Shown in pieces: positions 2,185-12,897 of a DNA stretch of 12,897 bases. The stretch is from a candidate division WOR-3 bacterium (lineage in GTDB: Bacteria; Hydrothermota; Hydrothermia; LBFQ01; DSFT01). The DNA lies in assembly GCA_965649115.1 (NCBI GenBank), contig CBFGJN010000055.1, forward strand, positions 1 through 12,897, in the 5' to 3' direction. Below the pieces are notes generated by a model that saw nothing but the letters and a program-made list of their open reading frames with translations, was not told the DNA's origin and made no database searches. Made by a program: the position numbers and the translations under genes. Within the stretch, counting starts at the first letter, position 1, and the number at the start of each line of letters is the position of its first letter.

Positions 2185-2390
2185 AAGCCTTATTTTTAAG
2201 GTGAGTGGAAGAAATAAGAAAAGGCTTATATTCAGGGTAGTATGGGGTTTTTAAAAGCTGTAGGCTTGTTTTGTAGGGTGGGTGGAAAGAGCACTTTGTC
2301 CTGATTAAACCTATTGATTTTATTGGGGGTTTATTGAAAGGGGACTACGCTATTTATAAGGTGTAGCCTTAATTATAGGGTGGGTGGGGA
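2185..2390 (+). repeat. Intergenic modular repeat, copy 2 (internally reiterated modules)
   Basis: Four G(G/C)CTT-N6-8-(A/G)GGT(G/A).. units starting at about 2187, 2223, 2263 and 2366. Hairpins AAGCT-GTA-GGCTT (2255-2267) and TAAGGT-GTA-GCCTTA (2357-2371). TTGATTTTATTGGGGG at 2314-2329. Confidence 0.8.
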
Positions 2391-2424
2391 TACGATATTT
2401 AAAAACTTTTTAAGACTTTCTTTG

Positions 2425-3508: not shown

Positions 3509-4389
3509 TATATTATTTTTCAAGTGGTGAATTTGGGAGTTTAGTTTTTTTAGAGATTTTAAAACTAATAGAAATAAGAAAAGTTATAACAATCCCTAAT
3601 AGACCAAAGGGTAGAGGTTTAAAATTTCAAGAACCTTTAATAAAGCGATTAGCATTAGAAAATGATGTTGAAGTTATACAAGTTGAAAATCCAGAAGATT
3701 TGGTATTTGATGAAAGACCTGACTTTATAGTAGTTTGTGATTATGGTAAAATTCTAAAAGAAAAAACATTAAAACTTCCAAAAATTGCTCCATTAAATAT
3801 TCATCCTTCTTTACTTCCAAAATATAGAGGTGCTGCTCCTATTGAGAGAGCAATGATGGAAGGTGATGAAATTGGTGTAAGTATTATTTTAATGAATGAA
3901 AGAATTGATGAAGGAAAAATTATTAGACAAGAAAGAGTAAATTATTCTATTGAAATGACAAAGGGTGATTTATATCCTATATTGGCGCAATTAAGTGCAA
4001 AATTGCTTAAATTATCTATTGAAGATTTTATAAACAATAATGTTAGCTTGGTGGAGCAGATTGGACAACCAACTTATGCTAAAAAAATAAAGAAAGAAGA
4101 GCTATTTTTAGATTTTAATGAAAATTATTTAAAAATTGTAAGAAAGATAAATGCTTTATCTCCAAAGCCAACAGCAAGAGCAATTATAAAAAATTTATAT
4201 TTAAAATTTTATAGAGCCATTCCTTGTGAAATGAAATTAAAACCCTACGAAATTTATATAAATAAAGAAGAATTTATTATTGGTGCATTAGATGGTTCTG
4301 TGAAAATTTTAGAAATTCAACCTGAAAATTCAAAAATTATGAAAGCAAAAGATTTTATAAATGGTTATGCAAAATTAATTCTTGCCTAA
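3505..4389 (+). CDS. fmt: Methionyl-tRNA formyltransferase
   Basis: P-RPKGRG, NIHPSLLPKYRGAAPI, TYAKKIKKEE, RKINALSP-P, EIQPE..K.M.A.DF.NG. Confidence 0.95.
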   Translation: MIYYFSSGEFGSLVFLEILKLIEIRKVITIPNRPKGRGLKFQEPLIKRLALENDVEVIQVENPEDLVFDERPDFIVVCDYGKILKEKTLKLPKIAPLNIHPSLLPKYRGAAPIERAMMEGDEIGVSIILMNERIDEGKIIRQERVNYSIEMTKGDLYPILAQLSAKLLKLSIEDFINNNVSLVEQIGQPTYAKKIKKEELFLDFNENYLKIVRKINALSPKPTARAIIKNLYLKFYRAIPCEMKLKPYEIYINKEEFIIGALDGSVKILEIQPENSKIMKAKDFINGYAKLILA

Positions 4390-5665
4390 TTTTTAGGAGT
4401 TTATTGCTTATTTCAATTGGATATTCTATTTGTGATTTATTTATAGTCTTTAAATAATCTGGAAGTGTTGATAAATTCTCTTTAAAGAATTTCCTTGAAT
4501 TTTCAATTTCTTCATGCTCTAAAACTTTACCATTTTCTATATATTTTTTTAGAAGTGGAACACCTTCGCATTTCTCATCTTCAAGTGCAATAATATCTTT
4601 TACCATTATTCCATTTTTATAAATTCTATAAACTTGTTTTTTACCAGGTAGGGTTATCTTATTTGGTGAAGTTTTTATTTTAAAACCATATTCATCCTCA
4701 ACAAGTTTATAAACTCCGTTTAAATATGGGGCATCTGAACTTGTTCCCATTTTTGTTCCAATACCAAAAGCATCTGCTACTGCCCCCTTCTTCAAAATTT
4801 CATCAATTACATATTCGTCTAAATCTCCTGATAAAAAAATTTTTATATCAAAGCCTTCATTTTTAAACATTTGTTTGACTTTTTTACTTAATTCAACTAA
4901 ATCTCCACTATCTATTCTAACACCTTTAATTTTATAACCTTCTTTAAGTAATTTTATAACTTTCTTTGCTCCTTCAATAGTATCATAAGTATCAATTAGT
5001 AAAACTGGTTCCTTAAAACACTTTAAAAATTCTTTAAAAGCAGTTTCTTCATCGCCAAAGCTCATTATATATGAATGAGCCATAGTTCCATAAACAGGGA
5101 TATTATAAATTTTCCCTGCTAATACATTTGATGTTCCAATAAAATTACAAATATAACTAACTTTTGCTACTTTTAAAGCACTATCAATTCCATGGTCTCT
5201 TCTTGGTGAAAAATCAATACAAGGAATTCCTCTACTTGAAATTATAATTCTTGCACATTTACTTGCTATCATAGATTGGAAGTTAAATTGATTTAAAATG
5301 ATGGTTTCTAGTAATTGAGCTGATATTCTATCAGCAGTTATTCTTATGACAGGTTCATTAGGAAAGTAAATTTGACCTGAAGGAATTGCCCAAACATCCC
5401 CTTTAAATTTAAAATTTTTCAAATAGTCAAGAAAATCATCGGAAAATAATTTCAAGCTCTTTAAATACTTTATATCGTCTTCGCTAAAATGAAACTCAGA
5501 AATAATTTTTATTATATCATCAATTCCAGCACTAACAAGGAAATTTCTATTATTTGGTAAATTCCTAATAAATAATTCAAATGTTGAAATTTCATTTCTA
5601 TTTGATTTAAAATAACTATATGCCATCGTCAATTCGTATAAATCTGTCAAAAGTGATATATTCAT
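4355..5665 (-). CDS. pncB: Nicotinate phosphoribosyltransferase
   Basis: LLTDLYELTM, AQLLET, DF-PRR-HG, GTSNV-AG, GTMAHSY (phospho-His), LIDTYD, GVRIDSGD, FGIGT, VYKLVE, K.TLPGKKQVYR. Confidence 0.95.
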   Translation of the reverse strand: MNISLLTDLYELTMAYSYFKSNRNEISTFELFIRNLPNNRNFLVSAGIDDIIKIISEFHFSEDDIKYLKSLKLFSDDFLDYLKNFKFKGDVWAIPSGQIYFPNEPVIRITADRISAQLLETIILNQFNFQSMIASKCARIIISSRGIPCIDFSPRRDHGIDSALKVAKVSYICNFIGTSNVLAGKIYNIPVYGTMAHSYIMSFGDEETAFKEFLKCFKEPVLLIDTYDTIEGAKKVIKLLKEGYKIKGVRIDSGDLVELSKKVKQMFKNEGFDIKIFLSGDLDEYVIDEILKKGAVADAFGIGTKMGTSSDAPYLNGVYKLVEDEYGFKIKTSPNKITLPGKKQVYRIYKNGIMVKDIIALEDEKCEGVPLLKKYIENGKVLEHEEIENSRKFFKENLSTLPDYLKTINKSQIEYPIEISNKLLKIRQELILHNHL

Positions 5666-5684: not shown

Positions 5685-5695
5685 CAATTTTTTAA

Positions 5696-5759
5696 TGTTG
5701 TGTTCCATAATTCTGAAAATATCTATTTTTCTAAATTTTGCCTATAATAAAATCAACAA
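5696..5759 (-). repeat. Internally deleted intergenic repeat, copy 4 (inverted)
   Basis: The minus strand reads TTGTTGATTTTATT...AAAAATAGATATTTTCAGAATTATGGAACACAACA, matching copy 1 at 1-13 and 106-140. Confidence 0.75.
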
Positions 5760-7271: not shown

Positions 7272-7372
7272 TGATTTTATTGGGGGCAAAGCCCCCCAAT
7301 GCCGAGAAACGGGCATTTTAAAGCGGAAGGCGTAATTTATAGTTTTAAAATTATTGGACAAGGCAAAGAGCA
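7272..7372 (+). repeat. Intergenic modular repeat, copy 5
   Basis: TGATTTTATTGGGGGC-AAA-GCCCCCCAATGCCGAGAAACGGGCATTTTAAAGCGGAAGGC aligns with copy 1 positions 5-76. End module AATTATTGGACA at 7349-7360. Confidence 0.85.
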
Positions 7373-7384
7373 TTATTTTTTGTC

Positions 7385-7396
7385 CTTTAAAATTTT
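7385..7396 (+). promoter_or_regulatory. -10-like CTTTAAAATTTT motif upstream of ccmE
   Basis: TAAAAT at 7388-7393, 8 nt before in-frame TTG 7402. Confidence 0.55.
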
Positions 7397-10550: not shown

Positions 10551-11399
10551 ATGCATAAACCTGTTATGGTTAGTGAAATTATAAAACTAACTGAGCCTAC
10601 GGATAATAGTATAATTGTAGATGCAACATTTGGTTTTGGAGGTCATTCAAAAGCATTTTATGAAATAGTAAAAAATGGATTGATTATTGGATTTGAAAAA
10701 AATGAAAAGACTTATGAAATTGTAAAAGAAATTTTTAAAGATTATTCAAGAATTTTGATTTATAATGTTGGTTATGAGAATATGAGTGAAATTATTGGAG
10801 AACTTGGGTTATTAAATAAAGTTGATATTGTTGTTTTTGATTTGGGACTATCTTCGTTTCTTATTGAAAGGTCGGGATTAGGTTTTAGTTATAAAAGAAA
10901 TGAAATTCTTGATATGCGATTTAGTCAAAAAGAAGGTAAGCCTTTATACCAATTACTTGAAAATCTAACTCAAAATGAAATTGAAAAAATTCTTAAAAAT
11001 TATGGAGATATTAAAAATCCTTATAAAATTTCAAAAGTTATTGTAAATAGCAAACCTATTAAAACAACAAAAGAACTTGTAAGTATTATAGAAAAAATTA
11101 CACCAAGAAATAAACTTGACAAAACACTAAAAAAAGTTTTTCAAGCATTTAGAATCTATGTAAATAATGAGATTGAAAATATAAGAAGGGGTATTTTGAA
11201 TGCTCATAAATGTTTAAAAGTTGGTGGTAAAGTAGCGGTTCTATCTTATCATTCAATTGAAGATAGAGTTATAAAAGGTTTTTATAAATCCCCTCTCTTT
11301 TTTCCACTTTTAAAAAAGCCTTTAAGACCTTCAAGTGAGGAAATTCAACAAAATCCAAGGGCAAGAAGTGCTAAATTAAGAATTTTAATTAAAAGATGA
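10551..11399 (+). CDS. rsmH: 16S rRNA C1402 N4-methyltransferase RsmH (MraW)
   Basis: HKPVM..E, DATFGFGGHS, DLGLSS, GFSY, LDMR, FQAFRIYVN.E, SYHSIEDR.IK, NPRARSAKLR. Confidence 0.97.
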   Translation: MHKPVMVSEIIKLTEPTDNSIIVDATFGFGGHSKAFYEIVKNGLIIGFEKNEKTYEIVKEIFKDYSRILIYNVGYENMSEIIGELGLLNKVDIVVFDLGLSSFLIERSGLGFSYKRNEILDMRFSQKEGKPLYQLLENLTQNEIEKILKNYGDIKNPYKISKVIVNSKPIKTTKELVSIIEKITPRNKLDKTLKKVFQAFRIYVNNEIENIRRGILNAHKCLKVGGKVAVLSYHSIEDRVIKGFYKSPLFFPLLKKPLRPSSEEIQQNPRARSAKLRILIKR

Positions 11400-12235
11400 T
11401 TTTTATAATTCTTTCAATCATAATTTTATTTTTGGGTTTTGGTTTTATAGCTTTTGAGATTGCTTATCTTTCAGTTTCATATCCAATAATTTTTAAATCA
11501 ACAAATAGAAAAGAATTTATAGAAAATCCTGTTGGTATTTTATTTACAATTTTATTTGGTGTAAATGTTTTGTCTATCGTTTATGCAATAATAAGTTTTA
11601 GATTTTTCAAAGAGTTCTTTAATGAAGATTTGTCAATTGTATTTGGAGGAATTTTTTCTACAATTACATTCGTTTTATTTTCTGAATTTGCTCCAAGAAT
11701 TATATCAAGGTTAAATCCTTCAATTATTTTGAGAATTTTTAAATGGCAAATTTTGCTTACATATTATTTAATTTTACCCATAAACTTAATTCTTAAATTT
11801 TTCTCTCCAAAGAATCCTGAAGAGATTATTAAATTGTACTTGGATGAACTTGAAAGAAAACAAATTGTAGATAAATTTGAAAAAGAAGTTATAAAAAGAA
11901 TTTTTGATTACTTGAAAATGGAAGTTAAGAACTTTGTAAGAAAGTTTGAAGATTTTGATATTGTTTCTTTAAATGAGCTTGAAAACATAAGAAATTTTAA
12001 AAGTGATATTATTATTGTTAAGGATGGAGAAAAAATTTTGGGGTACATATATAAGAAACAACTTTTGAAAATTGATGAAATAGAAATTTACGATTTGATT
12101 AATAAACCTGTCTTTATGAGTGATAATTCAAAACTTGAAGATGTTATTAAAGAAATGAAGAATAAAAGAGTAAGTGTTATTTTTACGGAGAGTGGTATTA
12201 TTACGCTTGAAGATGTTTGGAAAGGTGTTATTTAA
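11396..12235 (+). CDS. CNNM (DUF21) transmembrane domain plus degenerate CBS pair protein (CorB/TlyC-like)
   Basis: F.A.E.A..S, TILFG.N, LFSEFAPR (GE..PK-like), P....L and C-terminal GIITLEDV. Confidence 0.8.
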   Translation: MIFIILSIIILFLGFGFIAFEIAYLSVSYPIIFKSTNRKEFIENPVGILFTILFGVNVLSIVYAIISFRFFKEFFNEDLSIVFGGIFSTITFVLFSEFAPRIISRLNPSIILRIFKWQILLTYYLILPINLILKFFSPKNPEEIIKLYLDELERKQIVDKFEKEVIKRIFDYLKMEVKNFVRKFEDFDIVSLNELENIRNFKSDIIIVKDGEKILGYIYKKQLLKIDEIEIYDLINKPVFMSDNSKLEDVIKEMKNKRVSVIFTESGIITLEDVWKGVI

Positions 12236-12239
12236 ATGT

Positions 12240-12427
12240 TGCTTTAACTTATAAAAATTCATTTAGAACTATTGAGGTATAATGTAGTTGGGTGGAAATC
12301 TTATTGATTTAATTGCCCCCTACTGAAATAAGGGCATTTATAAGCCGAAAAATGGGTATTTATAAAGCTCTGCTTTATTCTTAGGGGGTGTGGAAAATAA
12401 ATACTTTCGGAATTACTGGACACAGCA
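12240..12427 (+). mobile_element. Putative MITE-like element; the best-delimited copy of the intergenic repeat
   Basis: 188 bp, begins TGCT and ends AGCA, flanked by the direct repeat TTTAAATGT (12231-12239 and 12428-12436). Contains family modules, including hairpin ATAAAGC-TCT-GCTTTAT (12362-12378) and end GAATTACTGGACACAGCA. Confidence 0.6.
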
Positions 12428-12428
12428 T

Positions 12429-12897
12429 TTAAATGTAAGCTCCATAGTATTCTCTAAATTTTTTCATTTCTTCATTATCACTATTTAAGGCTGATTGAAT
12501 GTCTCCATCAAAAATTTTATAACCATCTTTTAGTAAAATGATTCTATTTGAGATTTTTATAGCACTTCTTAAATCGTGTGTTATTGATATTGTAGTAGTT
12601 TTAAGCTCGCTATTAAGCTTAATAATTAGTTCGTTTATTAGGTCAGATGTAATAGGATCAAGTCCTGTTGTTGGCTCATCGTAAATAATATATTTTGGAT
12701 TGTTAATGATTGCTCTTGCTATTGATACTCTTTTTCTCATTCCTCCTGATAATTCAGATGGATACAATTTTAAAACTCTTTCATCTAAATCAACCATTTT
12801 TAAAACTTCTATTATTCTGCTTTTAATATATTCATTATCTTTTATCCCATTTTCTATTAGAACGAATGCTAAATTTTGATATACATTATAAAAGTCA
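12429..12897 (-). CDS. mlaF: ABC transporter ATP-binding protein, MlaF/Ttg2A-like (5' part outside the window)
   Basis: PSELSGGMRKRVSIARA, YDEPTTGLDPI, ITHD. The frame stays open to the window edge (DFYNVYQNLAF...), so ATG 12797 is internal. Confidence 0.8.
   Translation of the reverse strand, partial: DFYNVYQNLAFVLIENGIKDNEYIKSRIIEVLKMVDLDERVLKLYPSELSGGMRKRVSIARAIINNPKYIIYDEPTTGLDPITSDLINELIIKLNSELKTTTISITHDLRSAIKISNRIILLKDGYKIFDGDIQSALNSDNEEMKKFREYYGAYI

Follow-up and report, generated by a model that had tools for sequence, protein, structure and literature searches.

The 12,897-nt window analysed here (contig C55 of a 1.85-Mb, 99-contig assembly, G000) ends in two convergent genes that are separated by a short stretch of DNA flanked by a direct repeat. 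This arrangement raises the question of whether the stretch was inserted between the genes, by what kind of element, and at what cost to the two reading frames. Our analysis revealed that the 188-bp insert is a real, worn-out copy of a very abundant MITE moved by an IS5-type transposase, which is an ordinary kind of event, and that the insertion hit the overlapping stop codons of two genes, harming neither.

Organization of the locus

Sequence inspection showed that positions 12230-12239 and 12427-12436 both read ATTTAAATGT. Within these segments the 9-mer TTTAAATGT is found at 12231-12239 and again at 12428-12436, and the extra matching A corresponds to 12230 and to 12427, the latter of which still belongs to the element as its last base. 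The two 9-mers enclose 188 bp (12240-12427, plus strand, left-to-right) that start with TGCT and end with AGCA, and the same ...GGACACAGCA terminus recurs at 131-140, where it closes a second copy in the window. The left 9-mer holds the stop codon TAA (12233-12235) of a plus-strand gene (11396-12235) that encodes a CNNM/DUF21-domain membrane protein of 279 residues (PF01595, E 1.8e-9). The right 9-mer holds the stop codon (TTA on the plus strand, 12429-12431) of a minus-strand gene for an ABC-transporter ATPase (PF00005, E 1.1e-12), of which the 3' part, 12429-12896, lies in the window before the gene runs off its end. Both genes are unaltered by the insertion. The initial annotation, made from the letters of the window, had described the two repeats around a TGCT...AGCA insert and had placed a stop codon inside each of them, and our inspection confirmed both points.

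The insert overlaps no open reading frame of at least 80 residues in the ORF list of the window. A scan of the window against Rfam at gathering thresholds returned 0 families, so the MITE repeat is not a curated RNA family. Consensus scans of 12000-12700 gave 3 promoter-like sites, compared to 4.2 expected, and 0 terminator-like sites, and the latter result thus gives no sign of the insert supplying a terminator to the converging genes.

A MITE family with 9-bp target duplications

Iterated nhmmer searching from the rightmost 88 nt of the insert returned 585 hits, in which the conservation of the family stops sharply one base past ...ACAGCA. Canonical copies start with TGCTTTGTCCAGTAAAT, the inverted complement of the right end ...ATTACTGGACACAGCA, and possess inverted ends of ~17 bp. 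A 17-nt end motif (at most 4 mismatches) occurs 910 times in the genome, compared to 83 times in a reversed-genome control. Adjacent inward-facing ends define 219 elements of 100-320 bp, with a mode at 204-206 bp in addition to shorter size classes of 138-193 bp. From 92 copies a model of 205 positions was derived; its matches, at 771 places, together cover 97,266 bases or 5.3% of the genome.

Among the 219 elements, 210 had enough flanking sequence for the scoring of target duplications. Perfect 9-bp duplications were found at 84 of them and 8-of-9 matches at 14 more, against 0.7 and 0.7 with permuted flanks. Comparison of the flanks at 7, 10 or 11 bp gave 0 exact matches, and at 8 bp gave 9. 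The family is a MITE making 9-bp target duplications: its members are short and noncoding (188 bp here, 204-206 bp in the main class), they carry terminal inverted repeats, of which only the right one is whole in the window copy, and they duplicate a target of fixed length, with 9/9 matching positions at the window copy. Two further plus-strand copies that end in a right terminus are present in the window, one at 2-140 (model positions 66-205) that is cut by the contig start, and a partial one at 7273-7365. When a canonical copy was searched against 64 genomes of the class, matches among the best 12 candidates per genome were restricted to G000, G002 and G003, which belong to one genus.

The parental IS5-family element

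The parent insertion sequence (IS) was found via end motifs with a non-MITE-like interior. This yielded 10 left and 16 right IS ends at 26 contig termini, all of them 43-178 nt from the contig ends. Every IS copy in G000 is broken across contig ends, and its interior is unassembled. The left end reads TGCTTTGTCCAATAAAT... and the right end TGCCTTGTCCAATAATT..., with a terminal repeat common to the MITE. The left end runs 67-68 nt to the ATG opening MGKVNWQEYNKELVRRGEIW..., and the right end comes after ...IMNSFYSYSNLAD and a stop codon; at the protein level the IS termini give MGKVNWQEYNKELV... on one side and ...IMNSFYSYSNLAD* on the other. The MITE therefore has its ends in common with an autonomous element of the same genome, the termini of which flank the N- and C-terminal codons of a transposase.

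A database protein of 300 residues, P0001, is 92% identical to the N-terminal transposase fragment and matches the C-terminus at 13/13 positions. It scores 88.9 bits against PF01609 (E 4.8e-25) and 73.5 bits against PF13737 (E 2.3e-20), and it aligns end to end (residues 5-292) with the NCBIfam IS5-family model NF033579 at 245.5 bits, compared to a cut-off of 140. P0001 is thus a DDE_Tnp_1-type transposase of the IS5 family. With the ATG 68 nt in, an ORF of 903 nt and ~85 nt after it, the IS is estimated to be about 1.05 kb long. A profile search of G000 with PF01609 and PF13737 found nothing, which is not evidence of absence because the IS interior is unassembled there. As no complete IS is assembled, the link between MITE and transposase runs via the terminal fragments and the database protein. 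Altogether, the shared ends and the IS5-type transposase indicate that the MITE is the non-autonomous partner of an element of the IS5 family, which presumably makes 9-bp duplications as well.

Related metagenome loci carry both ends around such genes, and one complete-ended relative, L097 375-1296, is degenerate and has flanks that do not match. A search of the 64 genomes of the class with the N-terminal transposase fragment found only G000 and one weak hit in G013. The family end motif was present in 0 of the 30 loci fetched from PF01609 hits in 60 relatives. A tblastn search of the ORFs at these PF01609 loci against G000 gave 34 matches spread over ordinary contigs, which we took as neighbouring genes. 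In addition, pairs of family ends 330-2,700 bp apart in G000 enclose, from a reading of their ORFs, ordinary-looking genes.

The repeat family is a main cause of breaks in the assembly, which lacks the transposase gene. Short-read assemblies of the lineage can be expected to lack this gene as well, and annotators of the lineage should mask the family. In this small thermophile genome the MITE and its parent IS account for breaks at many contig ends, and numerous other contigs terminate within MITE copies.

The short left end of the window copy

The family model aligns with the window copy in two pieces, a weak match of model positions 41-137 to 12245-12349 (E 1.5e-7, calculated on the local stretch) and a match of positions 109-205 to 12343-12427 (E 1.8e-16). 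The right terminal inverted repeat AATTACTGGACACAGCA (12411-12427, plus strand) is intact, with 2/17 mismatches to the end motif. At the left end, comparison with canonical copies identified TGCTTT (12240-12245, plus strand) as the remnant of the terminal inverted repeat. Model positions 7-40, which comprise most of the left inverted repeat and the adjacent palindrome, are missing, and TGCTTT directly joins AACTTATAAAAATTC, a block that resembles other copies with 94-97% identity over 31 nt. Since the left repeat is only 6 nt, the left boundary of the element rests on the duplication and the TGCTTT match rather than on a full repeat. Used as an nhmmer query, the leftmost 70 nt of this copy recovered only themselves; divergence or rearrangement there is too strong for a family search to start from them.

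The junction TGCTTTAACTTAT... is found once in the genome, and the other matches with at most 2 edits are unrelated sequence, so the short left repeat is a one-off lesion and not a family trait. A terminal repeat of about 4 bp had at first been taken as typical of the family and as a hint of an unusual mechanism. This view is not supported, as canonical copies have ends of ~17 bp and the window copy has lost positions 7-40, and an unusual mechanism need not be invoked; the locus thus corrects the impression of 4-bp family ends. The simplest order of events would be that a normal element inserted first and that an internal deletion came second.

Alternatively, the window copy might have transposed in its present short form via a left end of ~6 nt, by an atypical mechanism or an end-relaxed transposase. 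Such a course would agree with a duplication that is perfect at 9/9 positions despite the nearly lost left repeat, and with the existence of the 138-193 bp classes, which shows that shortened elements move. However, the shortened classes that were counted had been found via both end motifs, so they have kept their ends, and the window junction is seen only once in the genome. Moreover, IS5-type transposases act on both terminal repeats. We therefore consider transposition in the short form improbable, compared to insertion of a normal element that was later damaged.

An empty site in a congener and the direction of change

The CNNM-ABC synteny is kept in only one relative, the congener G002, where the 3' ends of the CNNM gene (87% DNA identity) and of the ABC gene (91%) lie on a single contig. 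The CNNM gene ends at the same place as in G000, and at G002:C56:4271-4278 the two BLAST matches share 8 nt. The junction reads ...GGGATTATTTAGATATAAGCTCC..., in which the flanks are joined via one 9-mer with no element between them. This 9-mer differs from TTTAAATGT at 2 positions, and the two stop codons overlap there. In G001, G003 and G004 the ABC gene has other neighbours, again without the element.

G002:C56 thus presents the empty site that the initial annotation had predicted for relatives, with two substitutions in the 9-mer. The initial annotation had also suggested looking for 9-bp duplications at other copies and for longer same-ended elements that encode an enzyme; the former were found at the 84 elements described above and the latter as the IS5-family transposase at 26 contig ends. 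Its proposal that the family is a mobile non-autonomous element is borne out by these three results together.

On grounds of parsimony, 12240-12427 would have been gained in G000 rather than lost in G002. The opposite direction, in which an ancestral element was precisely excised in G002 through recombination between the 9-bp repeats, appears even less probable than transposition in the short form. The synteny is common only to G002, which leaves no outgroup for the direction, and the degenerate state of the element suggests some age; but the loss would need a deletion exact enough to restore both stop codons, the repeats in G000 have stayed identical whereas the 9-mer of G002 differs from them at 2 positions, and 0/4 congeners have the element at the ABC 3' end. 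Finally, the idea that the flanking repeat is a chance AT-rich match around a family hairpin patch that arrived by recombination deserves hardly any credence, for in a genome of 27.6% G+C the 9-mer does occur 208 times (both strands, 1.85 Mb) and 2.1% of random trials (2,543/118,486) find a one-G/C 9-mer repeated 109-329 nt upstream, but the repeat adjoins both element ends exactly, the joint chance falls to about 1e-5 once TGCTTT is required directly after the recurring 9-mer, the empty site of G002 is what remains of the locus once the element and one repeat are taken away, and the 9-bp rule holds in 84 of the 210 other copies.

Altogether, it is very probable that an IS5-type MITE inserted at the TTTAAATGT stop-codon overlap, duplicated its target and later decayed, that it was gained after the split from the nearest sampled relative, and that its position is off-target for the family. 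We propose that the element entered at the 9-bp TTTAAATGT, in which the convergent genes would have had overlapping stop codons (TTAA). A pair of cuts staggered by 9 bp, with the gaps then repaired, would have duplicated this target, as the duplications across the family suggest, and because of the duplication neither gene lost its stop codon or had its protein changed. Subsequent decay would have removed 34 nt just inside the left end, with most of the left inverted repeat, and the internal hairpin region of the copy was probably rearranged during the same decay. The resulting 188-bp copy is very probably immobile now. The insertion would be later than the split from the nearest sampled relative, which keeps the empty site. 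The locus thus provides a clean, datable case of a transposon on the overlapping stop codons of convergent genes, in which both genes survive by virtue of the target duplication.

The filled site is identical in public hot-spring contigs from runs of different studies (X1, 12039-12800; X5, 12184-12502), and contig X7, which covers 12075-12287 with the left junction, shows no difference from the window. In a comparison of 4 public runs with 11700-12897 every contig at the site includes the element, which gives no sign of recent activity there; as rare variants are lost from contigs, the absence of an empty-site allele among them is no proof of fixation.

Position of insertions relative to a promoter-like motif

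In most copies of the family, a promoter-like motif near start codons follows 18-19 nt downstream of the right end. The genome has 453 right ends, of which 106 are followed by another element after exactly 9 nt, forming stacks; with these and 7 ends without enough flank excluded, 340 non-stacked right ends were scored. The motif CTTTAAAATTTT (at most 2 mismatches) begins at +19 in 130/340, at +18 in 47/340 and at +10 to +13 in 58/340, compared to about 0.6 matches expected per offset from the 6,907 matches genome-wide. There is no motif within 80 nt of 68/340 right ends. The left ends show no motif-distance peak, and the duplicated 9 bases carry no sequence signal. An ORF of at least 50 residues starts 3-8 nt past the motif in 140 of the 177 cases at +18/+19. 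Given this position before start codons, CTTTAAAATTTT, which has 386 exact copies in the genome, may act as a start-proximal promoter element, and it resembles a promoter of the -10 type that serves leaderless mRNAs. Of the 9 IS right ends examined in this respect, 4 sit 19 nt from the motif and 3 adjoin another element via 9 nt. The ATG of the IS transposase is itself preceded by a motif copy (ATTTAAAATTTT GGA ATG).

In the window, the copies that end at 140 and 7365 obey the +19 rule, with motifs at 160-171 and 7385-7396, respectively, whereas the copy that ends at 12427 does not. The sequence CTCTAAATTTTT (12452-12463, plus strand), a 10/12 match to CTTTAAAATTTT, lies 24 nt past this right end, inside the ABC coding sequence. 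The right end at 12427 is the only one of the 340 with its first motif match at +24, and the window copy is an off-target insertion for the family.

We lean towards a model, held with moderate confidence, in which the IS5-type element and its MITE measure 18-19 nt from the start-proximal promoter motif, always turn the same end to the gene and re-enter the same 9 bp, thereby building stacks, the targets not being chosen by their sequence; the window copy would then be a rare off-target insertion drawn by the 10-of-12 pseudo-motif at +24. If this is true, promoter-directed integration, described for the Mutator-like TnGBS/ISLre2 group, would extend to a second transposase family unrelated to it, and off-target cases such as the window copy would show what the targeting tolerates. 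Should experiments confirm the model, a small single-protein IS5 transposase would have position-directed integration. The literature titles and abstract beginnings that were searched included no paper on promoter-distance targeting by IS5-family elements and none on the repeats of this lineage.

Comparison with known systems

We take the IS5-family elements with 9-bp duplications to be the IS903 group in the ISfinder grouping. The present pair resembles the IS5 family in the DDE_Tnp_1_5 plus DDE_Tnp_1 architecture of P0001 and in the 9-bp duplications. It differs from the IS5 family and the IS903 group in its ends, which start with TGC and not GGC, and from the IS5 family also in its host, an uncultured AT-rich hot-spring lineage, and in an insertion that is oriented and lies 18-19 nt from a promoter-like motif. 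The family is an IS5-type MITE, a known kind; the empty site at this locus, the cause of the short left end and the exception to the promoter rule are new results.

The closest published pair found is MITEAba12 and ISAba12 of Acinetobacter. According to the part of the report consulted (PMC6382973), this pair has 16-bp ends GGCTTTGTTGCACAAA, 9-bp duplications and an IS of 1,039 bp, whereas MITEAba12 itself is 113 bp long, with 90 copies across 31 genomes, duplications in 40% of the copies and, as the only target preference mentioned there, AT-richness. As far as that part of the report goes, both pairs consist of a non-coding element that shares ends of ~16-17 bp with a single-ORF DDE IS of ~1 kb in the same genome, and both show 9-bp duplications in about 40% of copies (84/210 here). 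In addition, the ends of ISAba12 and those of the present family share the core GCTTTGT (GGCTTTGTTGCACAAA compared to TGCTTTGTCCAGTAAAT). Compared to MITEAba12 as described in these sections, the family here is 205 bp long, contains G+C-rich hairpin modules, has hundreds of copies in one genome, and displays both a strong preference in position and orientation by the promoter-like motif and 9-nt-spaced stacks.

Fixed-distance, oriented insertion upstream of promoters has been described for TnGBS, ISLre2 and ISKra4, which have Mutator-like transposases (PMC3942029, in the excerpt consulted). Set against that excerpt, the transposase here is unrelated (IS5/DDE_Tnp_1, compared to p-MULT there), the motif lies 3-8 nt from start codons and is not a -35 box, and the window copy itself breaks the distance rule.

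Stacks, composites and remnants

Analysis of 33 clean two-element stacks revealed that all three 9-mers are identical in 7, one side is shared in 12, the outer 9-mers are identical with a different inner one in 3, and none is shared in 11. The three identical 9-mers (7/33 stacks) are re-insertion into the same target. The stacks with identical outer 9-mers lie at G000 C27:20296-20790, C4:18773-19153 and C5:23320-23646, and their arrangement suggests tandem dimers that were transposed as one unit.

A larger unit of 1,426 bp at G000:C11:31359-32784 (L031 560-1985) has family ends and perfect 9-bp flanks TATATCTTT. It contains a partial right-end copy, two genes and a whole MITE. One gene encodes a weakly RelB-like protein of 65 residues (E 0.019) and the other a protein of 242 residues without a Pfam family; neither ORF matches a transposase family. 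It may represent a composite with cargo genes that the same transposase mobilizes.

Besides the copies that end in a right terminus, the window contains a partial internal family copy at 2303-2413 (plus strand, model positions 57-187), which lies inside a run of hairpin modules at 2163-2391. The stretch 2163-2413 consists of three hairpin-plus-GGGTGGGTGG modules without recognisable terminal repeats, and it looks like a decayed stack upstream of the motif-like TTTTAAAATTTT at 2417-2428. On the minus strand, 5691-5745 is a reverse-oriented remnant of a family right end; a CTTAAAATTTT motif lies 12 nt from it, ahead of the start of the minus-strand gene 4355-5665.
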